Below, piece by piece: positions 1 to 24,983 of a stretch of 64,000 nucleotides of DNA. The notes beneath the pieces were generated by a model. The model was not told where the DNA came from and did no database searches. It saw nothing but the letters and a program-made list of their open reading frames with translations. Numbering within the stretch: position 1 is the first letter of the stretch; each line of letters starts with the position of its first letter. Made by a program: the position numbers and the translations under genes. Source of the stretch: an uncultured bacterium (GTDB lineage: Bacteria; Omnitrophota; Omnitrophia; Omnitrophales; Aquincolibacteriaceae); contig CAYWRU010000002.1 of assembly GCA_964460795.1 (NCBI GenBank), forward strand, positions 1,173-65,172, written 5' to 3'.

Positions 1-3000
1 TAGGATGCGATGAATTCAATATTTCCAAAAGCTGCTGCAGCGTTCGAATATGGACTTGGTTTAACTTGACCCCCGCTTTCCCCAAAAAACGGAAATCTGT
101 TTTGCGATGCATGATTTCATGCCAAGCCTGAAGCGTAAGATCCTGTCTCCAAATACCTAACTTATAAAAACTTTCCAGTTTTAAACGGGCTTGCTGCAGA
201 AAATTATCAATATTCCGCCTGTCCTTTTTTCCTTCCTGCTGAGCTAACGCCGCTGCATTTTTCTTTATTTCTCCCTTCAGGCCGTAAAAACTCTTGGTAA
301 GTTTTGCCTGAAAATCGGTTAAAGGCGTCCAGGTTCGGCCGCGATCCGGGAAAAGGGCGTTCATAAATTCCTGTTTTTTTAGATAAGTCGGCATCGGCTT
401 TGTGCGAACCTCCGAGCGCCCCCGGGGAACAACTTTCTGCTGATCCTGCACTAAACGCACTTCTGAACGTGGGGCAGCGGGTGGTTCCGGAGCATGCATG
501 ACACTGTCAATGTCTGCGGCGCTGGCATTGGGGAAGGTCAACGTAGCCATCCTTGGAAATATTTTTTCTTCAGATAAATGCATCCGGCCCAATCCATTTG
601 CAAATTCAAGCGCGGCCTGATTAGGATCCCCAATTTCCAGCGTTTTGCGAATAAGTTTCGTCAATGGAACAGGATAAGAATGCCCGTTTCTTTGCAAAAT
701 AATGTCCAATCCTGTCACTGGAGGAAATTGAGAATAATGCGGACCAAAGAGAGTCAGAAGCCGCGGTTGATTTGCCTCTTGAAGTTTTTTCAAAAAAAGC
801 CCGAACCCATAGGCGAAATCGTCCGATGAAACCCCTGAAAACATAAACGCCTGGAAAAGCTGTTCAAAACTTCCATTTCCAAATCTAACTTCCACCACAA
901 GACCAATCCCCTCGTTAGGATGACGACTGAGCAAACGAAAAACGTCTTCCTCATCCGGCAGGGCATTAATCATAGGCCCGAACCGCACCTTGATTTGATT
1001 GGCAAAGGCAGAGGCTTGGCGAAAGGTCTCATAAAGTATATCCATAACCAGCGAATAAATTTCTCGCTGATGACCTTCCCCGGACAAACCCGGAATTGAG
1101 CGATGAAGCCTGAAGATTTCGGTGCGAAAATCCTGAATATTCCATTCAGCGGATACAAAGTTTTTCCGGGAAATTTTTCCGTCCAAAACGGTTATTCTCT
1201 GAATCAGATCTCTCAATTTTTCACGCACCTCATCCGCCGGATAGACTGGCAGGGATTGAGCAAGTGATTCATCCAAATAAAAAACAAAATTAGCAGAAGG
1301 CGCTTTCTCCGCCAAAACCTTGACAGCCTCCAGTGCTTGATCCTGAGGAACTCCCTGTAAACGTTTCAAAACAACCTTAACTTCTTCATCAAATATTTTT
1401 TCCGGCCTGTTTACATCTCTCTGCTTCGCTTGCTTCTCCCATTTTTGATAAAAGGGAAAGAGTGCTTCTATAAAGGCTTCCCGGCGCGCCTCCTCCCACG
1501 ATAAAGACAGGAAATGAGTTCTCATCCGTTTAACAAAATCCTCTTTCTGCGCCTTTGCGGCCGCCAGCTCAGGGCCTGCTTTTATAGAAATGTTGTTTCG
1601 GGATGCTGGATGCTGATACGGCGCATCCTGTTCTTCATCACCAAAAGGATAAGTGCCGTCGTCCCGCTCTTCAGATCCAGAAGTAATAAGCAGAGTTTCA
1701 TCCGGCGCGGCTTGCCAATGCCAGTCCGGTTGATCGTCCCTCGGAGTTTCATAACCAGGGGGCGGTGCCACGGAGGGAATTTTAGGAGGTGAAACTATAC
1801 TGGGCGTATCACCCTTTCGATGGATAGCGTTCATTGGATGAGCTACGGCCACCCCGGGTTCAGACGGTAAATCTCGATCAGCCCGTACATCCCAGCTTGC
1901 TTCGCGAATAAAAAGACGGTTGGGACCTTCAAATAAAACCCGGTATAGCTGCGGATTTTGGGGCGTGACGTGTTCGCCCATGGGAAAGGTCTGAAGCCAT
2001 GCCAGAACTTTTCGCTGATTTTCTAATTTTCGATAAAAATCTTCTCCCCAATTGGGCAGCCAATTGCTCACCAAAGTCCCATTTAAGTAAATATTCAACC
2101 GCGCTGGATCGGCCACAGGATCTAAGCCTCTCTTCCGAACTTCATGGATCGGCAGTCCTGTTTCTTCGGCTAATCGTTCCCGGAGTTCTGGCGATAGACT
2201 CTGAATCAAAGAAGGATCCGGTGGAAGCAATGAGGTCGGAATTCTGTACACATGATAATCCGAAGTCGATAAATGATGCGGCAATCCCCTTCGAAGCGGT
2301 GAGCGCACCCAAATTGCCCCTTCATTTCCAGAATCACTGGGTGTCACAGGAGCCGGGAAAATCTGAACGGTATACCAGGCCCCGGAAGCCACAATCCGCT
2401 CAATATCGCGGAGGGTGGCATAGTGAGAAAAATAAAATCCCTGATTTGCCATTTCTGATAATAAAAACGGAAGGCCGTCCCTTCCATCCCGAAGATGGGA
2501 CAAGACTTCGGGATGAACTTCAATCTGAATTTTCGGATTTTTTGAGATATTGACCATCGAGGAAGGCGCTGGAACGGAAATAATCGCCGGCGGCATGGCA
2601 GAAGTCACCGCGTCATTTTCTCTGCTCTTCATCACTTCTACCAGAATGGGGTGACGATGATCCAGAACGAGGTGAACTCCGAACGCATGGTCTTCTTTCA
2701 CAAGTGAAACTGAAAATGGAAGTGACTGCATCTGTTTTGACATAATTTTTTCCGGATCATTCCGATGAGTATTTAAGGCTTTTTGAATTGCTTTGCTATG
2801 AAGATGCGCGCGCTCAGGCAGTTCAAAAGTTATTTGATGATGAACGGAAATAAGGCTCTGAAGCCAGATTCTTGTCCCGAGCTTGGGGTCTAAGGGATCC
2901 AGAGGATATTCCACAAAAACCGCCTCGAGAGGTCCGGCATGCAGAGCCGTTTCCAACCATTGAATGTCTTCTGCCTTCATGGGAAAATCAGCCGCTTGTT

Positions 3001-6000
3001 TTTTAATCTCTTCCCATGCGCTTTCAGCCCAATATCCAGGCTCTAATGTCTTGATCTTGACTGAGATTCCCGGAACAGCAGTCTCCACGCTCAAGGTCGT
3101 AGGCGGAACAGTTGATTTCCATGGGAATATAAATCCCCCTTTCACACCCATAAGTCCCAAAACCGCTTGAAGCACCGCGTGATCAGTGTTCAAGGAGACA
3201 ACCGAACGCTGCGGAGCAAGATCCTGAGTGATGGTTTCAAGCGAATCATGGGCTCCCATCATGACAAGGATTTTTATTTTTATCTCGCTGGATAGATTAT
3301 TAAGATTTTTGACCAGCTGACTCCAATAAATAGGATGCGAGAGCGCATCTGCGATGGCGGTTTGAAAATCAGCGCCGGATCTCAGCCATTTTTCTTTTCG
3401 CGCTGAAGAAGAAAGCACCGGCATCGAAACTCCATGATAAGGAATGCGGGATAATGCGACCAAAATCTCCATCTGGGTTTCAGGGCTCAGAAAAGGATAC
3501 TGAGTTTGTAGATCCCAGACCGGATAATCGATGCGGCCGAAATCACGATAATCTGTTTCTCTTGTAGATTCATTAAATAAAGGCGCTTGGACAGGAAAGT
3601 GCAGCAAGGCGTCCGAAGATTCATGGCTAAATCCAAAATCAGCAGACACCGGCAAGGCGTCGTGCAAAAGAACCAGCCCAGGCTCTCCCGGGTTTTTATG
3701 TAATAAACTCTTCATTTCTATATCCGTTCCCTGAAGAGTCATCACCCCATATGGACGTCTCTGGGTATCCATTTTCTCAAGACATTTTTTTAAGACGGGG
3801 AAAAAATCGTGAACCGTGACAGCTCCCGAGACCAGCATGGCGGGGACAAGCCCCAATCCCCGCCCGGTTAAAAAGGCGGGCTTTAGCTTTCCATGAAGAT
3901 TTTCTTCCCAGGTTTTATACAGCGCAGTCTGATAGAGAAGTGCGGTCAGAAGATGAAAAACAGGCGGAGAAATTCCGTCTGCATTTTGAGTCGTCAGCGA
4001 TTCCATAGACACCTTGAGCGACTGAGCGGCCTCTTCATACAGTTTCCGGACGGATGAAAAATTCCGGACCATTTGCGCTGCCGAATCCCGGGCCTCCTGA
4101 GTCATTTCCGGCATCACTTCCGCAAAGATGATCCCCATTTCCTTGGTTTGAAGTCCTCTGAAAATCTCCTGCGTATTCCGCCTTTCCTTCCTTAGTTCGG
4201 ACCGCTTCGCAGACCCCTCTGGAGTTTTTTCTAAGTGATAAGCCGCCAGAAAATCTTTGATCTGCTGCAGTTTTATTTTTCCTAATGCCGGAATTCCAAG
4301 CAGGTCTTTATCCGAGGCATTTCGCAGTTGTTCGAGTGTTTTAATTCCAAGATTCTCTCTGAGCCCTTTTATCCATCGCGGCAGTCCTATACGATAGCTG
4401 TATCCCAAGAAACCAAAATCCGTTTCTCGGTTCAAAACTTCTGGCGTGGGGCCCTCGTTCCACAATCCTAGCTCATAAAAACTTTCAAGCTTAACTCGAG
4501 CTGATCTCAAAAAATTATTGCTGTCACGACGGTCAGATCGTCCTGATTCCTTGGCTATTTCCAGGTGAGATTTTTTGCTAGCCCCTTTTAGCCCGTAAAA
4601 ATCTCTTACGACGCGCTGTTCAATTTCCGTCAGCGGCGTCCACTCATCGCCATCATCCGGCAATACTTTCGCAACAAAATCAGAGTTTTTTAGATGCTCA
4701 GGAAGTACATGCTCTGCATCTGGTTTATGCCCTAAAACAATCCCCTGTTTAGAAGCCTCGGGATGTTTTTTAAAGTAGGCATGCAAACGACTCACGAGAA
4801 TCCCCATCACGCCGGCAGCCTGATTAAGACTTAATCCCGCCAAGTCTTGGGGGTGCCTTGCCAGAAGCGCTGCGATCTTTTTAGACCGCATTTCGCTGCG
4901 CGATTCAGAAAGAGGCCTTGGCATGAATTCATTTAATCGATATCGAAGCAAGGACTGCAATTCATAATCTTCAGGGCTGGGAAGCGTTACCTCAGTATAG
5001 GCAATAGATCCATGGCGAACGGCAATCGCTGCGGTTCCAATGGGCCGATCTTTTAAGCTCACCTTGTATCTCAAAATATCACCGGATCGATAAAGCTGCA
5101 CCATCCCCGGGGATCCATAGTAACCAAAAGCCATGTCACCATGATAATCAGTGTGATTCCACTGTAGATATTGCAGCGGTTGACTGGACGATTCAGGAAA
5201 ATAGGAATCAAAATTATGTAAGATTTTTTGCAAAGCATAACGGAAGGAATGTAAGGTTGCCGCCATCGTCATTCCGTGGTCTGCCGTAATTTGCTCCAAA
5301 GACTTGTTCGGCTCTCCGGCAGAAACACCAAAATGCTCATTGAGTATCAGCGTTTCAGCATTGGATAAAAGTTTCCATGCTTTGCCACGCTGCTTCTGTG
5401 CCTTTTGGGGGGCCCTGAATTGACGGATAAAATCCCGGCCATAAACTGGATTTTTAAATATTTTTTCCACCACCTCCTCCGCGTTTCGCATTTCAGAACG
5501 AGGAGGTGTCTTAGATACGGTTTGAGCCGATGACCATCGAATGCGTGTCGGCAAAGCAGCCGAGGAATCACGAAGAGGCCTCAAAATTCCGGTTCGAAAG
5601 CGCTGCGTCCGCGCTTTTTGATTTTTCTTTTGAAGTTCAACGATCTTTAAAACACGGACAAATTCATCACGCGTCATGATCTTAGAATCCACAGCCGCTA
5701 AGCGCATTTGATACATCATCCGATCGAAAATCTGCTCGGCTTCCTGAACGGTCATACCCCGCTCTTTCGCCCATAAAGGAATCAAGGCTTCGTTGGGATC
5801 CTCTTTCCATTTTTCAAAAAAGAAAGCCTCCTCCCCGCTGAGAGACCCTTTGAAACGCTGAATGAACCGCGCCATTGCCTGGACATCTAAGGAAGGAAAC
5901 CAATCTAATATAGAATTATCCACAAGCACTTCTAAGCGGTCTTCCTCACCCTCCACAGCAGATGCCAAAATCGGCAAAGCCACTTCGCGCCGAAGATGCC

Positions 6001-9000
6001 GCGTGGTCTTGCCCAAGTGTTTTTTAATCTTTGCCTGAGCCGCAGGTTTGGCTTGTTCAAAGAAACGAATACCGTTTTGAGGTTTAAATTGGGGAAGAAA
6101 TTCCTGATAGGCCAATTTGCCTTCAGAAGCTAGTTCTGCTTTGTCATCATCGCGGATGTTATAACGATCAATCACGACATCCAAAGCCCAAAGGTTCGAA
6201 GCCACAAGATGCGCACCCGCAGTTTCATCTTGAGTATTTGATAATAAATAAAGAGCGCCCAGCACTAAATCCCCCAACGGCTGGAGACGAGGCTTCTCGC
6301 CTTCCGCCACTTTTTCCTCCATCAGCTTGGGCTGTTTTTCAAGCCATTTGAGAAATGCGATCACGTTTTCGGTCTCGGGCCGTGATGCGAAATCCGGCTC
6401 ATTTAATATTTGAATAACGCTGAGAACCACGACATAGAGCATTTGGTGGATCGCCAAAGTCACATAGGGCGTTTCAACAATCGGATTCTCCCAATGAAGA
6501 CGCGCTGCAAGTTTCGAAGCGGTGTTTTTTGCGTAGGCGATGTTTTTCCACAAGGGCTCGTGTTTGGCCAAAACATCCTTAAACCGCCCTGAGGCATTTT
6601 GAATGGCGGTATCATTTTCCTGCTGAACTGTACTGGCCATTTCCAGAATACGGCCTTCGATCTGGTCCGGATCCTGAGTGGCCAATCTTAAAGCTGCACT
6701 CACAACAGCCTCTTCATCCAAAAGACCCGGCACTTCGACATATTGCTCGATTTCTTTTTGAAGTTCGGCAGCGCTCGCGACCGAATCATGGAGACGGCCG
6801 CGGAAGTAATCGAGAAGTTGTTCATAGCGTTTTTTTCCGTTAAGTAATCGATTCCATCGCTGTTCCTCCATCCGCAAAATCGACTCTCCCAAAGCCAGGA
6901 GATTCACTCGCGTGGCTTCAGACCGAGAAGCAACTTGAATTCCCTGGAGCTCCGCAGGCTTTTCCGAAGGAGGATTAAGCAGCAAAGGGGCGCGCCTGAC
7001 TTTTACGCCGGATTCAGATCCTGCTTTTTCTGAAGGAAGGAAAGAATCGCCGTTTGATTCCGGATTTCGATAGTCAAAAGACATCGGCTGCCTTTCAAAT
7101 ACCTGATAGGGAAGGCTCAATTCCTCGGCGATTTTTTTAAAATCAGGTTCCTGCTTCAAATAGGCATAGGCTTCGTAAAGCGCTTCTTCGATTTTTTGAA
7201 GATAGCGCTCGGCTTCTTCCTGCAGATATCCGGATTCGCCTTTAACAGAAATGCTGATCCCGAGAAAATCTAGATACTGCTGTTTTAGGCGCGAAAGTTC
7301 TCCCTCGCTTGCGGCATGGTGGTAGTCCTCGATGACAGAATCTGGATATCCCAGGAAAGTTCCCATAATCACCGGTTCCGATACGGGGTTTCGAACCATC
7401 CAATCAAACAAGGAACTGAAAAGCGCAATGGAATATTCTGAAAATCTTTCGAGGTCATTATTTTCGTAGGCTTCGCCCAGCCAGTCCAAGTGAGATTTAG
7501 CTTCAGGATCCACTGAACCCGTTAATAACAGCAGATCTTTTTTGCCCAAAACCTCGGCGCCAAGAAGATAGGGAGAAAAAATACAGGTGTTCGTAAAAAC
7601 TAATCCGATTCCTAAATCCTCAACGCGGTGCCACCTGGACAACTCTTCATAAAGCGGTGAAATCGAAGGATCTGAGGCATCAAAAACACTACCCTGAACA
7701 TACGCAGGCCGAAGACCAAGAAATACAGCCAGCACTGCAGGGGTCATCAGAATTTTTCGGGATTCAAACGACAGACGGCCATAAATTTGTTTCACAAGCC
7801 GGATCCTGTCCAAAATAATGTCCGCTTCATCGGACTCAAAAAGCGAGGCCGTATCGATCGGTTCCGCAGGCCGCAAAATATTATAGGAAGACAGCGGCGG
7901 AACTTGTCCTTTCATTTCCAAAGCCGCCAAGAAAAGCGGCTCCAGATCAACCCCTGTCAATCGAATGCGGTATTTTCTTTCCCAATGTTTTCGAATGGCT
8001 TCAATATCCAAATCATCCGGAAAACCTTTAGGAAAATACCGTGCTAATTTTTCTGCAAAAACAATTCCTGCCTTTGGATTTCCAAAAGCAAGATTAATCG
8101 GTTCTAGATTAAATTCAGCCCGAACTTCAGAGCGCTTTTTATCGCGCTCAATTTTGTCCCTCGCAAGCCGCACCATCCCTAAGTGTTTTAATCCAGTCAT
8201 GCCGGTTTGCATATGGAGCGCTGGCGGCTTCGGAGGCTCAGGTTTTTCATGCTGTTTTTTCCGGAGCGAGACTGCCGGAGTCTCCTGTCCCATAGCCGAT
8301 AACGCCTCTTTTGCCCGTACCCCCATGGTAGCATCACGATAATGGACGGCGGCCTGCCATCTTTTCTCAGCTGTTTGAATTAATTTTTGGATATATTGAG
8401 TTTTAGCATTTCGCCTTTGAACCGGAAGACTTTCTCTCCAATGTTGATAATAAGGAATTAAAAGAGTTCGTTCGGTTTCCGTCAGAGGCGCATCCGCTTG
8501 AGTGGCCCCATGTGCAGAAAGCCAGGAAGCGTATGTGGTTCGAACATTTCCTGCCCCTAAAACATACGAAATGGCCGCAAGGCTGGGGGTTTTTATTCCA
8601 AGCGCAGCAAGATGATCGCGTGCCTTAGCTTCTAAAATTCGGGACGCGTTTGAATCAAGCTTCATAAAAACCTCTGGCACAACAATTCCTTTTTGAGCTA
8701 ATGGAATGCCATATTGCAATGCTGTATTTTGAATGCTGTCAGTGCCAGCGACGTGAAGTTCTTTCGCAAAATCATTTAATGGAATCGGCATAATCTGATA
8801 AACGGGATTTCCCTGCCGAAGCCTTTGAAGCGCCTGATCGATCAGAACCTCAAATCTTTCTTTAGACTTAGGAAATTGGAGCCCCCAAACACCCAGCTCA
8901 CGAAGATTGATTTTGTAAGCTCTCGCCCACCGCCGAAGTCGAAACGACGTGATTCCCATTTTTTTGGCAATTTGATTTTCCCGAGGATGCTGGGTTTCCT

Positions 9001-12000
9001 TCTGAACTTCCTCGAGGGCCGATAGAAACCGCCCCAGAGACATAGGGGTCTCAGAAGACGCTCCGGTCGCTTCAGGAAAAAGCTTCTGAAGTTCTGCATC
9101 CGCAGCATCTGCATCAGTGGACGGCTGAGGGATTTTAAATTCCACGGCATGTCCTGCCAGAGCCTGCTGAATTTGAAGTTTGAGCGCTTCGAGATTGTGA
9201 TGATAAGCGTAATTTTTTAGAGCATTCCCAAGGGCCGTTCTTTGGAGGTCAGCGAACTTGGGAGCGAGGAACCATAAATCTGCTTTTTTATCGGCCGGGT
9301 TGATAGTTCCCCCCTTATCCGATTGATATATCAATCCTAACTCTTTCAAAAATCCCAGCTGTTTATTAAAGGTAGTCTGTGTCATTCCTTCCGTAAGGCT
9401 AAACATACTCGAGGCACGAACCGGATAATCCGTAAAATGGTTTTGCATGAATTCAAAAATCAGATAGGTATTTAAGTGTACCGTCGAAACATTCGAGACT
9501 CCGAATTCACTCAGCTTTTGAGAGAAATGAACAGGCTCTTTAGGAATGCTAAAAAGCGGCTGAGCATCATGAATCCGCTGAAATTGTTCTGCGAGAATTG
9601 CAACATTATCGCGCTCCGTGAATTCTCCGAGTAAAAATTCGACTTCATTAATGCGCTTTAAATCCTGTAAGTTTAATCTGTAGATTTTTGCATGATTTCG
9701 CAGCCCTTCAAGCTCGCGAATGAGTCTGCACTGAAGGAGTTGCTGTAAGGCTTTATGAAGTCCGCCCCTGCCGACATCACTGATCTTCGACATTAACTCA
9801 TAAAGCGTAAAGTCTGCGGTTGAAAAATATGAGATGATCGTATCAAAAGCCCTCAGAGCTGCTCTCGATTTGCGAAGTTCAGAACGAGCACGAAGCTGAT
9901 AGGTGCGAAAAGGAGAATCTGAATCCTGAAGATTCGGCCCCTGAAGACACTCAAAGCGTTCTGTGGCCAAAAGAAGCGGATGGATATTTTCAAAATTTTT
10001 ATAGACGATGAACCGCGCACCGGGCTTCATGGATTTTGCGAGCGTGTCAGCCAGCTGCTGTTCATCCCATGTGCCGAAGCCGTAATAATAAAGAACATCC
10101 GCTTTTGAAATAAGCCGGGAGGCTGCCGTACCATAAAAATCAACGGCATGCATCTGAATCTGGTTTCGGATCCGGGGAGTCTGAAAAACCAAGGCATCCA
10201 AAATCTCAAATCCGTCCCGGACAAACCCCTGCATTCCTTCGATGCCAATTAAATGCAGGTTGGGGTTTAAAAGCGCCAGCGCAAAAAGAAGATCTCCTTG
10301 CCCGCTTCCCAAATCAAGAAATGTGATGGGTTCATGGGATGCGAGATTCAACTCCTTCACAAGCCCCGGTAAATCCTTGGGATCACTGGATGCATAATAC
10401 CCAAATTCAGTTCTAGATTTCCTGAAAACAGCTCCGTTCCATCCGGGTACTTGTGCCATTTCGGTATAGATTTTGCCGTAAACTTCTTCGGCTTGCTCAG
10501 GTGAAATACGCCAGCGGGAGGCGGTCTGGGGAGGAACGGATTTTAAACCGGATTCGGAACGGGAAGTGTCCGCGGCATCATTTTTGGGTTGAGCTTTAAG
10601 CAACTGTTCGAGCATTTCATCGAGCGGCCTGGGACGCAAATCCAACCCAAGTTTAAATAAATCCTCCACCAAGCGGTTTCTTTCTTCCAAAATTAATTTT
10701 TCAGATGCGCTGGTAGGAATTCGGTCGATTACGGATTCAGTACCCACCTCTTCATGATGGGAGAAAACAAAGGCTGCATAAGTCACCAGTCTGTCTAAAA
10801 TTTCTTTGCTGTATTGAGAACTTCTGACATAAATTCTGATTTGAGCCCCTGGCTGTAACTCGGTAGCGTTCATCAAAAGTCCCAGGGGCGATACGATAAA
10901 CTCCTCTTCACCCATCCGGCCTTTTTTGATCAGTCGGTACCTCCATTCAAACTCATCTGGATCTGAAAGGTTCGCTAAATATTTTCCATAAATTTGTGTA
11001 GAAGCACGTTCGTGCATATGAAATTTCAGCGTGGCCGTGCTTTGGACCTCTAAAGGTTGGCTTCTTATTTCAGAACGGTTCAGCGATTCCTGAATCGCTT
11101 GAAGGCCGGCGGAATCCAGGGCTTGAGAGGCGGTAACAGAGGGAGCTATTGCACCCTCTTTGACAAGTCTTTGAAGAAAATAGTTTTTGCCGTAACCAAG
11201 ACCGATGACGTTTTTTGCGTCCGTCTTTTGGATCAAGGCCGGAAGCGCCTTCTCCAGATGAAGACTGTGCGTGATCGAACCGATTTCTTCTTCTATAATT
11301 TTCTCCGGACTGTCCAGAAGTTCTCCGGGCCGGAGGACGGAATAAAGCGGAATCTCCGGACGCTTCATGCGAGATTTTAAGGAAGTTAAAAATTCGCGGT
11401 ATCCTTTAAAGAGATCTTGGGTCTTTTCATTTACAAGGGAAGGATCATGACTTGTGATGTCATGCAGCACCAGCAGGAATTTGCCTCCCCGGGACTCCAC
11501 AACCTGTTGGAGACTTTCGCCTTTCCCCTTCGGAAAAGAAACGGCAAATCGTTTGTCGGAATATTGAACCGACAGGGCTGCATGATGCTCTTCCAAAAAC
11601 TTCTCGGCCTCGCCAAAGGAAATGTTGGAAACCACGGCCATTTGGCGCTCTCCGGAAAGACGTGCAACAGCTTCCAGAAACTGCGTGCCGCGATACACAA
11701 GCTCGGCCGCATCTTCCGGACTTAAGGCTCCGCTGGCATAGTAAGCCGCGGCCACTCCCCGGCTGGCCCCTAGAACCGCAGCTGGATGAGAGCCTTTCAT
11801 CAATTCTTTGAGCGCTTCCCAAAGCGCCATTTGATGCGCGGTAATCGCCAGATGACGTTTTAAAACCGGTTCTTCAGCAAGTGGATTCAAATTGAGGTTG
11901 TCACCCCGGCCACCGAGCCGGGGTCCAAAATCTGGATGCCGGATCGCCCCCGGATTCAATCCGGGGTTGTCCGGCATGACAAAAAGAGAATCATTCGATG

Positions 12001-15000
12001 GCGTGAATTGAGGCGTTATATCAAATTGCGGATCATTCAAAAGTCTCTGCATGCGCTGATTCATGCGTGCGTACATTGCTTGCACTTTTTCAGAAAATTC
12101 GTAAAGTTCCCGCGCCTCCCTGCCCGGCAAATGAAAACCCGACGGCGGGAAAAACACCGCACTCTCATTCCATTGTGTTGCCGAAGCAGCATCCAGATTT
12201 CCTTTTGTTGGAGTCGAAACCTCCAATTCATTCGGAGAGGATGCGCCCCTCACTTCAGATCGATTGCCCGCCGTGGAAGCTTTCCGCTGAGCGTGATCGA
12301 AAGCAAAATTTGGATTTATCTTTCGGATTTCTGAACGTTTCTGTGCTTTTTGCAGTTCATCAATCAGATAGGCGTTTTTCCCGACCCAGGGCTTTAGGCT
12401 GGCGTGCTGAGGATTTTTAATAAATCCGGTAATTACTTCCTTAAATCCTAGAAGTCGTGATCTTTTCTGTTCGTAGCGGTAAAGGAGATTTCGGATCGTC
12501 GACTGAACATGCTCCGGCAGATGAGGAAGACGCTCTCTAAGTTCCGCAATGTTTTCTTCTGCTTCTTGAATAGCTAATTCCGTATTTTCGATATCCAGCA
12601 GGACGTACGGCCGGTCATCATCCGGAACTGTTAAAAGATGCCGCCGCTCAAAACTTTCCACTAATTCCGAATTCCCTTTGACAAGTCCCGCCAAACGAGT
12701 CGTCGTCAAGGCTAAAGGATCCGAAAGACCCATCTCTGTCTCTTCCCCCATTCGCACTTCAGAACGCTGGGATGAACGCGTGCGGTGTTGTGCCCGAGAA
12801 AAATCTACTGGTCCAAAACCATCTTGGGCGTAGGCTTCTAAATATTTTTTGACTTCAGCGGGATCTTTTTTTCTAGTTTTATATTCAATCACCTGTTCGA
12901 GTTCCCGCAAAGTAAACGGCAAAGCAACAAATCGTTTTTGATAAGGTTTCCCGCTGGTCAATATAGGTGAAAAAATAAGCTCTAAAGGTTTCGAGCCGTC
13001 ATAACGAACTGGTTCCACCTCATGAATTTCTGTGAAATTTTTAGGGTATATTTTTATCGTATAAAATTTTGTGGGTTTGCTGCTCCGGGAATATCGAATC
13101 AGGAAACGGGCATGCATTCGAAGGCGCTGAAGCATTTGCTCCTTGCGGGTTTTACCCTTACGCAAATCATCACCGATCTCGCCCATTGTTTCTAAAGCAG
13201 CAAGCGGATTGTTAATATCATAAATACTCATACTGCTCATCAATCCATAACGGAGCAATAAATCAGACAAACGCTTAATGCTGTCCATGGACTGCGCAAA
13301 AGCAGCTTTGTCGTTTTCGCGGATGGCTTTCGAAGTCTCTTGGAGTAACTCATGAAGTTTCTCACCGTAAAGCCCGGCCCGCTTTTTCAGCCATTTCTTC
13401 TGTGCTTTCGACAGCGGGCGCGTATGAGCCCGGATTTCTGAACGAAGGTTTGATTGAGCCAGAACCGAGATGGCTTCATGGACCTCATTTTTAAATTGTC
13501 CCGGGTCATATTTTCTGAACCGTCTTGCGTCGCCGGAAGACAATGTTTTGCCTGACATTAATTGCTGAATGACGCCTTGAACAAATCCGTTTAATCCACC
13601 CCATTCCCCTTTTTGCCTTGCAAGCTCATAGATGCGCCGGGCCTCGGTCTGAAGAGCCGTCTCGACTTTTTTAGCCGGTTCAGAAGGAGGTGCAAGATCT
13701 CGAGGAGGAATTGAGAGGGAAGAAACTTGTCTGGTTTTCGCTTGATAGACCTGGTGCCCTACTTCTTTAATGGTTTCATGAAATTCAGGCTTCATTTCAG
13801 GCGGCAAGGCCTCTTTAGCTGCAAGATATTGAGCTTCCGCCGTCTCAACATCTCCTGCTTGAAGTGATTTGAGCGCTTGATCAAAGAGCGTTTGGACTTT
13901 TTGTCTCTGCGCCGCTTGCTCCAGCCGCAGCTTTTCAGCGGCCGCTGCTTTTTCTTGCACTTCTTTCAAATCTGCCGCATTTTTTAGAATACCTTCTAAA
14001 CGGGTACGCTGCTTACTTACGCGGTCCATAAGGTCAGGCTCTGAAGCCGCTGCCCAGTTTTTTTCTATTTCTTCTTTGTTCGATGAAAGCGTCTCGGATT
14101 CAGGTACAAGATTTTTCTCCAGCGCCTTTTCTAACTGTCTCATCAAAGTGTCCGCATGATCTAACAAAAGTGTCTGCGTTTTAATTTTTCCGGACCGAGC
14201 ATTTCGATCAGCTTTTTCCGCAAGAATAGCAGCTTCACGATCTTGAATGGTTTTCTTCAACCGAGCCAGATGAAGAATGGTTTCATCCATCCCTGGAAGA
14301 AGAGGCTGCAGTTCGAGGGCTTTGAGTTTTTCTTTAGCACGACTCAGATCTCCTTTAGCCGGATCCAGGAAACGCTCAACTCCGCCCAGTAAACCCTTCC
14401 ATATCTGAGTACGATGCTCCAAATCAGCCTGAAACGTTATGACGCCTTTGATACACCCGCTAAGACGGCCCTGTTCTTCCGGTGAAAGCGCCAAGAATAT
14501 TTCCCTATAGGCGATTCCTGCTGCGAATAATTTTTTCTTTTTAGATTCAGCCTCCGGCATATCCCGCCAGGTCCTTAGCAGGAGAATAAAATTCTTAAAT
14601 TTTTCCACTTTGTCCAGCTGAAGCACTCTGAGTTTTTCATTGGCTTGATCCGATTGGGGAACAAATTCCTGTGCTATTTGAGCGGCAACTTCTTCAAATT
14701 GGCTGGCCGTTTTCCAAGGCCGGACGAAAACTTTAAAATCTGTGCTTTGAAACTTTTCCTGGGTAAGCTGTTCTTTCACCGCTTCGGCTTGGGTTTCCAA
14801 CGCCATTAATAGATCAGTGGGATTTTGTAAAACAATCTCCCACAAAGAAGCCAGCGCACCATCATGACCTGGTTCTGCCGCCACCTCCGGTCTTTGATCC
14901 GTTACCTCAACCCTGTCAAGAAGATTGGCCCATTCGCCGGAAGGATCAAATCTTTCCTGAATCAATTTGATAAATGTCTGGCGTACTGCAGCTAAAGCGC

Positions 15001-18000
15001 CGGGTTCCTTGATCATGTTGGGATTATCAAAGCCGGCTTGTTTAAAAAACGCCGCATTTAAAACGCTCAGGTAACCGAGTTTGTTTTTTTCATCGGAAAT
15101 ATCGCGGAGATTTTTACGAATGGGTTCCGATGCCGGAAGCAGGGTCTCTAAAATTTTGATGAAAGGCTCGACTTGAGATATCCCGCTTGAAAAACGCCCC
15201 ATATCTGCGGCACTTACTAACGCCTGACTTGTACCCTCTTTTTTTGTCAGAAAAAGCCGGAGAACGGGTGCAAATAAATCAAGAATGGGAGATGCCCGAT
15301 CAATAAGCTTTTGACGTTCAGCCGGAATTTTATTTTTCCCGCCCGGCCAATCTTGAACGAGCCAATCCTCAAGAGAAAGTGTTTGCGGCTCCGGCGCTGG
15401 CTTGGCTGGCGGCAAAGCAGCCTGTCTTACCGAAGTATCGCGGCGGCGCGCATCTAATAATCGGGTGAAGATATGTCCTATTTCCCGGAACTCCGGGGGC
15501 ATGGTTTTTATCACCGTTTCCACTTCTGCAACAGAACCTGTTTCAAGCATTTTTCTAAAATCTATTAATTTTTGAAAATGGGCCATACGCGTTTCCCAAG
15601 GCTCTCCATTTGACCGAAGTTCACTGCGCAGCGAAGGCGTTAGGGCCCAATTATGAATTTTCTCAACGCTGGCAAGAAAAGCCTCCGGAGAACTGAGGTC
15701 AAAGGATGGAGGAGTATTTTCTTTCTGGACAATGGAAAGCTCTTGGATACGGCGAACGGATGTTCGATAACTTTCAAACACTTGTTCGAGCTCAGTTGAT
15801 ACCTTTTTGGAATAATCCGCCACAGCAAGCTGCTTCATTTGAGTCTCTAATCCGACACTCTGTAGTTTGAGGCTTTCGGATTCGCGTACCGCAGCATCCC
15901 ATTGATGATAAAAATCAGGAAGTCCGCCCTGCCCCGGGGCCGTTTGCTGCATAAAAAAATTCAGGCGGTCACGAAGATAAAAAGCGTTCGCCTCTTTCAA
16001 CATGTCATGAGAGTCCAATCCCATCCATACGATAAACGCTAGATTCAAAGCGATGTAGAAATCACGAGCCGCTGGATCATGAGATCCTTCCGGAGAAATC
16101 TTAAGATAACGTGAAAGAAGCGGCCCTGCATGATCGATCAAAGGCTGAATCATCTTAAATTTTGTTTCCCATGGGAAAATATTATTCTTGTGAAGTTCCC
16201 ACGCAGAGCCTCCCTTAGCGGTTTCCTTTCGAGGGACTAAAAACAAAGCCAGAACGGGAAAAAAGAAATCGCTTAGCGTATCAAACCGGACAAAAAATTC
16301 TGCCCGGTTATCAAATCCCGGATAATTTTGAGCGGCATTCAACCCGGCCTTAGTTTTCAAAAATTCAGCGGATGTCCAGGGACTTAACTGCCGGCGGATC
16401 TCCCGTGCAGACTGATCAAAATTGCTTAATAGCGTTTTATCGGCTCCAACCGGAATGGCGGAAGGCGCTTGAATACCATAAGTGCGCAGTTCATGGTCCT
16501 GCTCTAATTTGAGCTGTGCCTGGGTCGCCTGAAATTCGGCGTCGGTGCGGGTGATGAGCCGGGAATAGAGTTTTCTGGCCTCAAAAGAGCGCGCATGCTG
16601 GCGGGTCTTGGGCAAAAGACGGCGGGAAAGCGCCAACTCTACGAGTAATTTTCTAAGAATGCTCACTTTTTCCTCGGGGCTCATGCCTGCATGAAATGCA
16701 TAGGCCTGGACCACGGCTTCATCATATTCCAATGCAGGAATATCTTCAGACTGCGGAACAGGATCAAGAGGTGATTTCAAAATAACGACTTCAACTTTTT
16801 TCATGGATTTCGGCTTGCTGGCATTTCCATGAAATTCTGCAGCGGGGTCAATCCAAGGTTCTTTCAACGTCAATTCTAACCGCGGAGGAAGATTCAATCC
16901 GCCTTTGGAAGATCCGGCGGGTTCTGCGGGTAAGAAACGGACATCCAAAACTTTTTTAAGGAGAGCCGCCAGCTCATATTCAGAGCGCAGGTAGGGTCTT
17001 AAACCCAGACTTAAATTTGCCCATACCGAAAGAAAATTATCGGCTTCCACGCCGGGCCGCCATTGATGAGGAGCTTCCGATGCTTGTACGGATTCAGCCT
17101 GGGTGTTCAGAACACGCAAAGACGTTACCGTATTTTTGCGAAAGGCATCTAGATCAAGCCGCTCGTCCATGAGAGAAGCGTCGGCCATGACTTTAGGCAC
17201 TTCCGGATCAAGATCCGTATCCAGCCCCACTAAAAGACGGTTTATTTTGTGGCCTTCACGAAGTAAATTCCATAGTGGGTTATTACGATCCGATAAAAGA
17301 CGATCATAATGAGCGGCTGATCCGAGAACCGCGCGCAGTAAAGCATTGATTTTATCCATCCCTCCGAAAACCTTGAAATGAAGCCGGCAAGCCCGTAGTT
17401 CATTCGTTTCAGGATATTTTTTTGCCTTTTCATCATTAAGATAGTCCAATGCCTGCTGAAAAAAATTCCGGTGCAGCTGCGTCCAAAACTCCCGAGAATG
17501 TTCATGCATGCGGGGTTCTGGATGGGCCGCAGGATCAAAGGCAATAATTTTCCGGAGCATGGCCCGATAATAAAGTCCCTTGTCAATCAGTTGGAACTGA
17601 TCAAATAGTTCAGGAGCGAGCGCCTCTGCGTTGAGAGTGCTCCAGACTCCGTCAGCATCCAGACTTTTATACGTGCGTTTTTCAGAAAGTTCAGAGTCTG
17701 TTTGAGCCACATAGACTTTTCCATCCGAGTGAATAAAAAATCCGCTCACATGGTCAAGCGAATAAATCTGACCCTTTGAACGCACGTGTATCTCTAAAGC
17801 GCTCGAATGCGCTTTTATAGAAAACTGAAAAGCTGCTTGGTGAGGATAAGTTTTTTGAATCTCATGGATCCGCCGGCGGATGGCCTCTGCGTCCATTTCA
17901 AAAATCATGTCCCTTAATTCCGAGCGGTTTGAGATTTTTGAAATATTCACGCCCGAAGAAGGTAAAGCATTCTTTCCAGATTCGCCGGGATTGGGTACAA

Positions 18001-21000
18001 AGGGCATAGGTCTGTCCCCCCGATCCAGATCCGCGCCTGGCACATTTTCTGTGTTTTCTGTGATGGATGGGCTCGTTCGCATTTCTGCCCGTTTCACAGG
18101 ACGAGAAAAATCTAAATGCAGGAGGTGGGCCATGGATTCGAGACCGCCTTCGGCGATCAATCGGCCTTCCTCGTAGATCTGCCACCGGTCTTCCAAGGAC
18201 CGTTTTCTTTTAACGATCCAATTTAGCGCTCCGTAATGAGGCTGAATTTTGCAAAAGGATTCGATCAGTATTTTTCCGTGAAATTCTTTTTCCAGCTGGG
18301 CCTTCATAGCCTGAAGAAGTGAGGGAGTGTCGGCAAAGACTCCAATCCGCAGCGGGTCAAGAGAGGATTCAAAACGTAATTTTTCGTGCAGTTTCAGCCA
18401 GGCCTGAAGTCCTGTGGCATTCCAGGCCAAGGCCAGCGGAATTTGATATTCGCTGTCAGGTTCAAATTCATTCGTGGAAAATCCTGCCGCATGTTTAGTC
18501 AAAGACCATCCGTTTCCTTCCCGGGAAGCCTTGTCATCCGTTCCCACGACCTCATCCTGCGAGATTCCGAAACGCTCGGCCATAAAACGGAGGGCCAGCG
18601 CCTTATCAACTCCCTTGACCATGATGTCGATGGAAACCGAAGTGGCCAGAGGTTCAAAAAGATGAAATTTCTGATGAGCATGACTTTGGAGAAATTCCCG
18701 GACCTCTGCAGTCATTTGATTAATCTGACGATTCACTTCGTTTTGAGTCGTCCATTCAGGCTTGATATCCACCCAGGCCGCAAAACCGTATCGTTTGTCT
18801 TCCTTAAACACAAAAGGATGTTTAAACCCCCGCGATTCGAGATGCTTCAAAATATCCTGCAAAATCGCTTCCCGTTCTTCGGGGGTAAAAATGAAATCTT
18901 TGGCAACCACACCGTACTTTTTGACCAAATCCACTTCTTTCCGGACCAAGCGGCCGTCTTCTAATTCGTCCCATGCGGCATAACTTCCGTTTTCGGGAAA
19001 CAAAATAAAGTTGGATAACTCGGCGCCCGAAAGCCCCTCTCGAATGCGGTGCGCCACTTCTGCCACATCATGGACTCCGCGCGCACGCGCATCCGTATCG
19101 GTAACATGTTCAGCTCTTCCGCTGACAAGACCGTAAGGAATTCCTTCACCAAGAAGATTTTGAATTTTCAAAAGCGCAGACTCATCCGCTTCCTTGCTGC
19201 CGTCCGGCGTCAGATTGCCGTCAAAATCCGCCAGTCCCGAAAAATAAGTTTTTTTCAGCGCCGCTTCCAGCCGCCGTATGGCTTCCTCACGTGTGATACC
19301 TCTGATTTCAGAACGGCGATCGGTAGTCGAAGGCTGATAGGTGTACTGCCATTTTTGCCAGTCTTTTGGATTCTGTGCATCCACCGTTTTATGAATCCCT
19401 GGAAAAAGCGAGGGGTGATCAATCATAAAATCCAAAACATGATGCGCTACATAGTATGGATCTTGCAAACGCTGAACCGACGCTCTCTCCTGATCCAGGG
19501 TGATAAGCTTATGATTAAGAGTTCCCCGATCAGCTTTTGATTCCACGGTGAGATTCTTTTTATGCATCTCTCGAAGCCAAATCTCCATTTTCTCCAGATA
19601 CTGAAGCGCTTTATCGTGGTCTTCTTGATAAAACTGCGTCACCCCGGAAGCATCCCAAGAAAAATCAGGCGCCAGATGATGGCTGATGACCATATCGATG
19701 TACAAAATCTTGTTCATCAGAGCTTCATAATCACCCAACGCGCCATGAGTTTTCCATGCCTTATGAATGGCTTCCATGATTTTTAAAACTCTGTCATTTT
19801 GAGAAATGCTTCTTAAGCTTTCTTCACGCCGTTCATTTTCTTGCTCTCTCCAGTTCCAGTAGGATTTGATCCTGAAGAATTTAATCAAATGCCACAGCCG
19901 CGGAACCAAATATAAAAGTCCTCCCACGATCCCCGGGGTCACAAGCGCTAAGAAGATGGGGAGCAGATTCCCGCGCATTTCCGAACGACCAGCCTTGCCT
20001 CCCGCACCGGTGCCTGGCACGCTCTTTGCGCTCTGTGTTGAGGATGGACTCCTGACACGTCCGCGAGTAAAAGGCGCAAAAGAAGCCGCATACACAAAGA
20101 GCAGAGAAAAAATACCCGTCACCGCATACGTTACAACATCCCATGGATCCCAGGTGCCGGCTTCCGTTTTATAAAACTGTCCCTGTTCCTGACCCATCCC
20201 ATCGATCATGAAATAAATGACTCGAAGTACAATCATAATTCGGAGGGTTGTGGCCCAAGTTTTTAAGGTATTCGCGCTGAGCCGGAACAAGGAAAGAATG
20301 ATTAAAAAGGCATAGGTCCAAAGATAAGTAATCCCGGTCACTCCCGGCACGTAAAGAGCATCGTTCAAGTAATGACTTGCAAAAGTCCTGAGAGGTTTCC
20401 AGTCTATAGATGAAGCGCCACCGAGATAACTCACGGACTCGCGATAATACGCAAAAATGCCCAACATCAGAAAAAAGGAAAGGCTGGCATAAGCAAATAC
20501 TTTCGAGTCTCTTAAGCGTTCAATTCCTCTTGAAATGGCACGAGACTGTTTTTTAGGTGCGGACGGAGCAGGGCGTTCGTTCACCTGAAATTCCCGAAAC
20601 GCCAAAACAATCGCCCAAACACCCAAGGACACACCTGCAGCTGACGGAATGAATTTTTTTAGAAACTCGGTTCTGCGGATTGAAGCATAAACTCGATTCT
20701 CGGAAAGCTGCTTTGACTTCAAATGCTCGCGATGCGCCAGCCATACCGAAATGTACCTGATGAAATGTTGTTCAAGAGCCGTTTCAAATTCCTGGCGGGT
20801 TTTATGGTCCCTTTTAAGAAAGAATGTTTCTCCTCTATAATCATTCACACGCAAAAGAAGTCGCCACTGGGCAGGTCCGAATCCTCGTTTGACGCTTTTC
20901 ATGGTGAATTCATGGATTTGAAAATGGATTCCCCGTTTCTTAAGCTCCGCCTCACTGCGCTCATCCGGAGAAGCTGCAAAATACTTTTCGACTGCCGACC

Positions 21001-24961: not shown

Positions 24962-24983
24962 GGAGTCCTAATTGAAATGGATT

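Follow-up and report, generated by a model that had tools for sequence, protein, structure and literature searches.

A two-domain cassette pairing a relative of the RNA polymerase alpha-CTD with a probable sigma-region-4-like domain, set between conserved pentapeptides in a giant Omnitrophota protein

The C-terminal domain of the alpha subunit (alpha-CTD) and region 4 of the sigma factors are textbook parts of RNA polymerase (RNAP); to our knowledge, copies that are detached from the polymerase have hardly been studied. Giant bacterial proteins built as strings of effector domains are represented by the MARTX toxins, the modules of which are released proteolytically at short conserved inter-domain sites. 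Cleavage has likewise been suspected for the giant proteins of Omnitrophota, with information on the cleavage points stated to be absent (West-Roberts et al., 2023; 10.1101/2023.11.21.568195), and a multi-enzyme, inner-membrane-anchored class of such giants has been described (Nielsen and Lui, 2026; 10.64898/2026.06.07.730766). A word search found no mention of sigma or helix-turn-helix (HTH) in either of these works, nor of 'transcription' or 'DNA-binding' in the second. The present analysis concerns a giant protein gene at the left end of a 64,000-nucleotide stretch of an Omnitrophota contig (CAYWRU010000002.1), hereafter the window. An earlier note, made from the sequence alone, had reported in it three stretches patterned on sigma region 4.2 and an alpha-CTD-like helix-hairpin-helix (HhH), embedded serially between copies of the pentapeptide RSE[VILM]R (RSEhR). 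Both types of domain are already known; their combination as a cassette within a giant protein is new, and the punctuation by a pentapeptide is the more novel element.

All of the stretches under study are held by a single stop-free frame of 8322 codons (window 24967..2), the only one of such length in the window; it lies on the minus strand, which the earlier note had left unstated. The frame is truncated at the left edge of the window, such that the C-terminus falls outside and the protein comprises at least 8322 residues. With more than 8,000 residues, transmembrane anchors and many Pfam families, including a methyltransferase and HAD, it fits the multi-enzyme, inner-membrane-anchored class, and it agrees with the Omnitrophota mosaic giants in lineage, in the multi-kiloresidue length of the open reading frame (ORF), in its transmembrane helices and in the many distinct Pfam families along the chain. 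The pentapeptide and its variants split it into approximately 22 segments, of which those of concern here are segments 17 (aa 6490-6689), 18 (aa 6690-6921), 19 (aa 6922-8166), a short segment 20, and segment 21 (aa 8184 onward). In its soluble C-terminal part the protein carries a two-domain cassette of approximately 160 residues, composed of an N-terminal domain with three predicted helices, a linker of about 25 residues and an alpha-CTD-homologous domain (Table 1). The cassette occurs twice, at aa 6764-6918 and from aa 8201 to beyond the window edge, and a third, divergent copy with the sigma-like part only is found at aa 6526-6590. Between segments 18 and 21 the identity is 42% across 132 residues (E=1e-35), with the similarity beginning some 20 residues ahead of the sigma-like domain and continuing to the window edge, which bears out the suggestion that the same pair starts again at the left end of the window (1-418). 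Both peptides quoted in the earlier note are present: LSNAETL...QKIL (window 5368..5219, minus strand; aa 6534-6583) belongs to the divergent copy in segment 17, and LGIKTLEQ...DFL (4351..4247, minus strand; aa 6873-6907) to the alpha-CTD-like domain of segment 18.

Sequence comparison and predicted fold together establish the HhH part as a true relative of the alpha-CTD; by both, aa 6842-6918 match this domain better than any other HhH family. The Pfam models RNA_pol_A_CTD (PF03118) and HHH_5 match aa 6866-6908 at E ~1e-4, just under their gathering scores. With RNA_pol_A_CTD, segment 18 scores 21.2 bits (E=2.4e-4) and P0001, a homologous protein outside the giant gene that is described below, 22.3 bits (E=1.1e-4), neither reaching the cut-off of 23.8, and these matches cover only positions 28-66 of the 67 in the profile. 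A single-sequence search of the PDB returned four matches only, all of them to alpha-CTD at E about 0.5, and a two-sequence profile (segment 18 and P0001) found the alpha-CTD of Bacillus subtilis (1z3e_B) at E=3.6e-5, its 29 top matches all being RpoA, ahead of DNA polymerase beta. A hidden Markov model (HMM) built from outside alpha-CTD repeats alone scored 28.1 bits on aa 6872-6911. The HhH part was also matched by phmmer (E=1.2e-10) to P0002, a protein with four RNA_pol_A_CTD domains by Pfam (E=8.7e-36), and by hhalign (94.2%, E=1.2e-7) to the family of P0006, in which alpha-CTD domains follow a Pfam-recognized sigma region 4.

Of two AlphaFold2 (AF2) models, the second gave the alpha-CTD-like region a predicted local distance difference test score (pLDDT) of 73-82. 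The best PDB matches of this region in Foldseek were alpha-CTD chains of Escherichia coli and B. subtilis, with root-mean-square deviations (rmsd) of 2.5-2.8 A and target-normalised TM-scores of 0.73 for 1lb2_E (rmsd 2.8 A), 0.73 for 8y5t_A2 (2.5 A) and 0.70 for 1z3e_B; the probabilities attached to these matches were 0.99-1.00, yet the E-values only 0.07-0.3. Thus, both the alpha-CTD fold and significant homology to bona fide alpha-CTD were found, and the profile, HMM and structural matches together uphold the claim that an alpha-CTD-like HhH immediately follows a sigma-like copy within positions 4205-4885. The cassette keeps G296 of the NLGKKS hairpin and the 'L..GL.L' tail at the C-terminus; the hairpin itself reads ALGKIK in segment 18, RVGCKT in P0001 and NLGRKS in the alpha-CTD of B. 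subtilis. Unlike in RpoA, the domain comes without the alpha N-terminal domain, no match to RNA_pol_A_bac or RNA_pol_L being found in the giant protein or in P0001, and it is instead fused to an HTH and embedded in a giant protein.

The N-terminal part of the cassette is probably a diverged HTH of the sigma region 4 type, resembling that of the primary-type sigma factors. It shares with region 4 of RpoD/SigA, RpoS and RpoH (PF04545) the pattern L[ST]..E..V[VL]...[FY]GL..G....(L/I)..I....G, and the same predicted helix lengths and spacing. For profile-profile comparison, a region 4 profile was composed of RpoD, SigA from B. subtilis and Mycobacterium tuberculosis, RpoS and RpoH; its sequences were checked against the PDB, where both SigA sequences were residue-for-residue identical to deposited chains and chains of RpoD, RpoS and RpoH were matched strongly. 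An alignment of the three cassette members (A3) matched this profile in hhalign with P=2.3e-4 and 45% probability, and the same alignment with the segment 17 stretch added (A6) with P=3.8e-6 and 87% probability, over 36-38 columns in which helix 4.1, the FGL..G loop and the first helix of the HTH are in register; the match ends before the recognition helix. None of 100 column shuffles reached the observed scores (maxima of 15.5 and 20.5 versus 32.8 and 25.0), and six control profiles (Xre HTH, LuxR HTH, region 4 of ECF sigma factors, region 4 of FliA, alpha-CTD repeats and region 4 of the P0006 family), three of which represent other HTH classes, all gave P>0.01. In an unbiased search of 177,635 PDB sequences with A6, the top two matches were RpoS chains over region 4, at E=0.5 only, and when the whole giant protein was scanned with the sigma-4 profile, the stretch in segment 18 ranked first (P=1.6e-3). 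For the sigma-like part, AF2 predicted helices 21-31, 41-47 and 53-67 (11, 7 and 15 residues), the spacing of which is sigma-4-like.

A number of results weigh against this assignment. No match of Sigma70_r4 or Sigma70_r4_2 (PF04545) was returned by Pfam at E<=10 in segments 17, 18 and 21, a search in which the speed filters of HMMER may hide very weak matches; none was returned by the NCBIfam sigma-4 models, and the three-sequence cassette profile retrieved no sigma factor from the PDB. When run with the --max option, a home-made mixed sigma-4 HMM scored 4.0, 1.0 and below 0 bits, which is no better than noise. The scores of an HMM of region 4 of the P0006 family were likewise at noise level, and hhalign aligned the Pfam-positive Sigma70_r4 domains of that family to the cassette HTH with a probability of 0.16-0.5%. 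The pLDDT of the sigma-like part was low in both AF2 models, 40-64 overall and 55-64 in the second, with means for the input as a whole of 51 (all of segment 18, three-sequence alignment) and 59 (trimmed input). In Foldseek the sigma-4 chains 7kug_B, 6ido_B and 6onu_H form the next class after alpha-CTD (E 0.44-0.96, target-normalised TM-scores 0.35-0.57); given the low pLDDT, these matches constitute weak evidence. The residues of sigma-70 that contact the -35 element, which we take to be R584, E585 and R588 in E. coli numbering, are replaced by D, R or S in the cassette, the T-R-E-R of sigma pairing with S-D-R-R followed by D, S or N. Furthermore, with three known members the cassette family is too small for covariation or depth of conservation to be informative, and the addition of segment 17 to the alignment is partly circular because its stretch had been chosen for its sigma-4 look. 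The domain also differs from sigma factors in lacking regions 2 and 3; Sigma70_r2 and Sigma70_r3 have no match anywhere in the giant protein, and hence it does not sit within a sigma factor with region 2.

The stretch in segment 17 had been presented as the best example of the pattern (5215-5380), and it is statistically the weakest of the three. It is 21% identical to segment 18 (E=0.48) and aligns to the sigma-4 profile on its own with P=0.025. Against an HMM made from the paralogous pair, it ranks third in the giant protein (score 1.8, independent E-value 0.015), and its alignment to A3 is in register (hhalign P=0.0042). A pairwise Smith-Waterman comparison with region 4 of SigA gave z=7-8, which by our own calculation corresponds to E ~0.05 over a search space of 8322 residues; its top neighbours in the PDB were ribosomal protein L18 (E=0.75) and the Myb-like HTH of ARR10-B (E=0.99), with no sigma factor among them. 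If the sigma-4 likeness were to have arisen by chance or convergence in a generic helical domain, only the ancestry of the HhH would be real, and the cassette could serve as a protein-protein scaffold without a role at DNA or RNAP. The silence of Pfam, NCBIfam and the three-sequence PDB profile, the noise-level HMM scores, the low model confidence and the scan-corrected E-value of segment 17 are all compatible with this explanation, as are the weak Pfam scores of SAM-like families on the HhH region of segment 18. We consider it unlikely, given that the profiles match specifically and in the expected register, that the four-sequence profile A6 has RpoS region 4 as its top PDB match, that the most sigma-4-like window of the entire giant protein falls in segment 18, and that the pairing of sigma-4 with alpha-CTD recurs in Pfam-positive proteins. 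In sum, of what the earlier note had observed, the stretches are real and the alpha-CTD is solid, with sigma region 4 a probable identification only.

The pentapeptide RSE[VILM]R occurs 18 times in the giant protein, together with three copies of RAE[VLM]R, and the motif map thereby confirms the serial embedding between RSEhR sites. In unrelated ORFs of 83 loci, 669,000 residues in all, it was found five times in a count that leaves out the loci of P0001, equivalent to an expectation of approximately 0.06 per 8322 residues. The sites are located in linker-like stretches rich in Pro, Ser, Thr, Gly and Ala, and one stands at the start of each cassette-bearing segment; those flanking the stretches under study are at aa 6490, 6690, 6922, 8167 and 8184, and examples of RSE[VILM]R or RAE[VLM]R sites across the gene are at window positions 22181-22195, 12752-12766, 5486-5500 and 404-418, all on the minus strand. 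The codons of the motif vary between sites, with Ser encoded by both TCN and AGY, which rules out a repeat at the level of DNA as its source and indicates selection on the peptide instead. The sites are therefore regarded as candidate polyprotein processing sites. Cleavage at them is only putative, and against such a role stands the fact that a protease of matching specificity was not identified. Literature searches on pentapeptides in this sense, on PF03118 and on the run accessions returned nothing relevant. Segment 19, which separates the two cassettes, contains no internal RSEhR, and no other stretch without punctuation or annotation hereabouts in the protein comes near it in length; no Pfam match better than E=0.02 was found in it.

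An exhaustive HMMER search over 1.84 billion representative proteins identified ten proteins, of which eight match the HhH region alone and are tandem arrays of RNA_pol_A_CTD by Pfam (down to E=5.7e-75). P0001 is the only outside homolog of the sigma-like part (48% identity, E=1.1e-34 in the 1.84 billion proteins), and it alone was recovered by word-indexed searches with segment 18 and with P0001 itself; no relatives of the cassette were found in JGI metagenomes, IMG/VR or GenBank phages. Its gene is free-standing, placed between unrelated genes on three short contigs of ~60% GC and followed by a stop codon, and its host, a 60%-GC bacterium, is unrelated to the one with the giant protein. Upstream of the GTG called as its start, the reading frame continues without a stop, with an RSELR in frame 10 codons ahead of that start and an ATG 42 codons ahead of it, from which a protein of ~209 residues beginning MQALSRAGTRRKANEPTVTIRRPAAPRSDDTSRSELR would be translated. 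The called start (GTG at 2449) is thus probably too far downstream; at L001:2323-2952, and also on the other two contigs (L002, L003), the homolog has the in-frame upstream extension PAAPRSDDTSRSELR. The PAAPRSDDTS-RSELR that precedes the cassette of P0001 mirrors the PPAAPRSEVR-(12 aa)-RSEVR ahead of segment 21, and since the two share a junction at the equivalent place, the cassette appears to travel with its junction motif. Together, the paralogy within the giant protein and the free-standing P0001 show the cassette to be an autonomous unit. The gene upstream of P0001 had been suspected by eye to encode a sedolisin-type protease, a candidate that was dropped when Pfam did not confirm it.

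The closest precedent for the architecture is a small family of proteins (P0006 and P0011-P0016) in which Pfam recognizes Sigma70_r4 followed by two or three RNA_pol_A_CTD domains. The order, a sigma-4-type HTH and then an alpha-CTD-type HhH, is the same as in the cassette and the HhH parts are homologous, but these proteins, like the tandem alpha-CTD proteins, are stand-alone chains of 250-320 residues without an RSEhR motif. By sequence, only the HhH part of the cassette aligns to the family, so that it shares their architecture without being a member. Public data also contain proteins made of two to six tandem alpha-CTD domains (P0002, P0004, P0005, P0007, P0008, P0009 and P0010), several of which begin with what by eye resembles a signal peptide, and one contig (L084:2047-3293 and 7001-7753) has three genes, one of the Sigma70_r4 plus alpha-CTD type and two more with alpha-CTD. 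Literature searches yielded no published description of either the tandem alpha-CTD or the Sigma70_r4 plus alpha-CTD group, nor any description of detached alpha-CTD paralogs, which are annotated in both phages and bacteria. Segment 18 begins with an HTH of the Xre type, to which three tandem repeats in P0003 are homologous (E=2.9e-9 across the library, with HTH_3 assigned to P0003 by Pfam). On a metagenome contig of 33% GC, P0003 (L085:7001-8968; 655 residues) is encoded 7 nucleotides downstream of a large gene for at least 3480 residues; that large gene was rejected as a relative of the giant protein, having no RSEhR motif and no clear kinship with it.

The membrane anchoring that the earlier note ascribed to the giant protein is plausible from its hydrophobic clusters at aa 974-1113 and aa 1439-1689, within a total of at least nine hydrophobic segments, the inner membrane being the likely site. 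The last transmembrane helix is directly trailed by four K/R residues and therefore, by the positive-inside rule, the C-terminal ~6,600 residues are suggested to lie on the producer's cytoplasmic side. The methyltransferase, HAD and acyltransferase domains also count for this side; the Pfam domains scattered along the protein are Methyltransf_11 (a SAM-methyltransferase), an M50-like element, HAD and Acyl_transf_1. The M50 (site-2-protease)-like element, an HEMGH motif within the first hydrophobic cluster, which has four transmembrane helices (aa 1011-1116; window 21620-21937, minus strand; sub-threshold Pfam E=1.2e-4), is the sole peptidase-like domain seen.

The reading that we tentatively place first, as possible and somewhat short of probable, is that RSEhR serves as a processing site from which a small two-headed DNA-binding cassette with a specificity of its own would be released, and that this cassette would act in the first place in the cytoplasm of the producer. 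The pentapeptide would be a site-specific signal at which the cassettes are cut free as proteins of 15-25 kDa. The HhH domain would then contact the minor groove or the backbone, much as alpha-CTD binds UP elements, and the HTH would occupy the major groove next to it, an arrangement like that of the alpha-CTD and sigma-4 pair on UP/-35 DNA in PDB 3n97, with the released cassette functioning as a small modulator of transcription or of the nucleoid. As the -35 contacts of sigma are replaced in the cassette, it would be expected to have its own target on DNA and not to act as a true -35/UP decoy, and the predicted topology places the first site of action in the producer's own cytoplasm. Release by cleavage, binding to DNA and a decoy role are each inferred, and the free-standing P0001 with its RSELR junction speaks for a unit that is autonomous and could be released. 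In function, the closest parallel to released modules is provided by the MARTX toxins, which likewise are strings of unrelated effector-like domains with short conserved sites between them; the candidate site here is RSE[VILM]R and not a Leu site, however, cleavage is putative, and no cysteine protease domain, RTX repeat or signal for type I secretion of the MARTX kind was detected. More generally, Pfam returned no secretion signal, RTX repeat, type I secretion, translocation or autoprocessing family, the autoprocessing cysteine protease included, among its matches for the 8322 residues, and the failure to find a processing protease counts against release.

Alternatively, the giant protein might stay uncleaved and its HTH and HhH modules tether DNA to the inner membrane, be it chromosomal, from a plasmid or incoming, as with the HhH of ComEA, in which case RSEhR would be a linker, a structural motif or a site of modification. 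The transmembrane anchors are consistent with such a tether, as are the failure to find a processing protease and the series of putative nucleic-acid-binding modules in the C-terminal third (winged-helix-turn-helix-like stretches, an HTH at aa 5311-5400, and the Xre, sigma-like and alpha-CTD-like domains), and Omnitrophota giants have been depicted as membrane-anchored with their bulk in the cytoplasm, without mention of processing (10.64898/2026.06.07.730766). This arrangement is rather unlikely in our estimation: the free-standing P0001 retains RSELR though it has nothing to link, a strict pentapeptide with varied codons at 18 linkers would be more usual for a recognition site than for a spacer, and cleavage of such giants has been suspected (10.1101/2023.11.21.568195).

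The earlier note had favoured yet another role, in which the modules, once released, pass for the sigma-4 and alpha-CTD surfaces of RNAP and act as decoys or anti-activators, possibly in another cell. Their targets for titration would be activators, the beta-flap or -35/UP DNA, and the other cell could be prey or a host of this lineage, which is putatively predatory or episymbiotic. The likeness is indeed specific to parts of RNAP and not to generic HTH or HhH families, 3n97, with alpha-CTD beside sigma-4 on UP/-35 DNA, is among the Foldseek matches, and the best matches among viral structures are small proteins that bear the annotation RNAP alpha CTD and come from phages, agents that take over host transcription. 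The mixture of enzyme-like and regulatory modules is reminiscent of effector arrays, and an action on prey has been proposed for the giants of Omnitrophota (10.1101/2023.11.21.568195). At the level of residues, the decoy idea is somewhat disfavoured. In addition to the replaced -35 contacts, most of the '265 determinant' of alpha-CTD is not conserved. This patch, presumably R265, N268, C269, G296, K298 and S299, has only G296 invariant, with K298 and S299 in P0001 only; the equivalent of R265 is ambiguous, the helix that bears it lying outside the significant alignment, and these substitutions also count against the reading placed first above. The main weakness of action in another cell is the failure of Pfam to detect any secretion, RTX, translocation or autoprocessing element, and the predicted topology would leave the modules in the producer's cytoplasm. 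Hence, the domain ancestry proposed in that interpretation is retained and the decoy role is judged improbable. An equally improbable extension of the processing idea would have RSE[VILM]R be the cleavage signal of an unrecognised bacterial polyprotein system and the cassette a mobile promoter reader that reprograms transcription, possibly in prey or host. On that account, dozens of modules would be cut out of Omnitrophota giants serving as precursor arrays, and the cassette would move together with its junction motif, both inside giant genes and, in other phyla, as a gene by itself.

The two-headed cassette is thus encountered as an autonomous unit, with two copies in the giant protein and one more that forms a gene by itself in a distant bacterium, and its boundaries coincide with a strictly conserved pentapeptide in a group of proteins for which the cleavage points were stated to be unknown (10.1101/2023.11.21.568195). 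Should the motif prove to be a processing site, it would become testable whether the giants are polyproteins and whether modules directed at transcription are released from them, and the motif would provide a guide for splitting giants for structure prediction. If it is not a processing site, the finding still represents a clean new domain architecture.

Table 1. Positions of the giant ORF, its pentapeptide junctions and its cassette domains in the window.
Feature	Residues (aa)	Window position	Strand	Evidence or remark
Giant ORF	>=8322 aa	2..24967	(-)	N-terminus near 24961; mosaic of enzyme-like and DNA-binding-like segments split by RSE[VILM]R
RSEMR, opens segment 17	6490-6494	5486..5500	(-)	Motif scan
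Divergent sigma-4-like stretch, segment 17 (probable)	6526-6590	5198..5392	(-)	Paralog HMM, hhalign; no alpha-CTD-like domain after it
RSEMR, opens segment 18	6690-6694	4886..4900	(-)	Motif scan
Xre-type helix-turn-helix, N-terminus of segment 18	6698-6746	4730..4876	(-)	Homology to HTH_3 repeats of P0003
Sigma-region-4-like helical domain, copy 1 (probable)	6764-6838	4454..4678	(-)	hhalign versus region 4 profile
Alpha-CTD-like (HhH)2 domain, copy 1	6842-6918	4214..4444	(-)	PDB profile search, Foldseek, hhalign
RSELR, closes segment 18	6922-6926	4190..4204	(-)	Motif scan
Segment 19, 1240 residues between the two cassettes	6927-8166	470..4189	(-)	No recognisable family
Double junction PPAAP-RSEVR-(12 aa)-RSEVR, opens segment 21	8167-8188	404..469	(-)	Translation and motif scan
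Sigma-region-4-like helical domain, copy 2 (probable)	8201-8275	143..367	(-)	42% identity to copy 1; in alignments A3 and A6
Alpha-CTD-like domain, copy 2, start only	8284-8322	2..118	(-)	Aligns with copy 1 and P0001 up to 'IRTLQQL'; rest cut by window edge

The genes around the giant gene are ordinary diderm housekeeping genes, encoding valyl-tRNA synthetase (ValRS), LeuA, aspartate kinase, ThrC, Hom, LpxB, GlnA, BamA, DnaB and Maf. The ValRS of the window is 65% identical to that of the Candidatus Omnitrophota metagenome-assembled genome RA.bin90, with all other phyla at or below 54%, which makes an Omnitrophota chromosome the most likely source of the window; a synteny comparison found no giant gene beside ValRS in the nearest Omnitrophota genome of this kind. 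No exact DNA matches of the window were found in genome and metagenome collections, and no Rfam families on either strand of positions 1-26000.

The DNA-binding-like content of the C-terminal third of the giant protein extends beyond the three reported stretches. Segment 15 (aa 5028-5611; window 8135-9886, minus strand) appears as a series of HTH and winged-helix modules. The best PDB match of aa 5028-5260 is the winged helix of RAP30/TFIIF-beta (E=0.033), which lends weak support to the winged-helix-like stretches reported at ~9300-9840, and the highest generic HTH score in the protein falls at aa 5311-5400. Antisense to the giant gene, a plus-strand ORF of 184 codons (window 1999-2553) is most likely a chance open frame.

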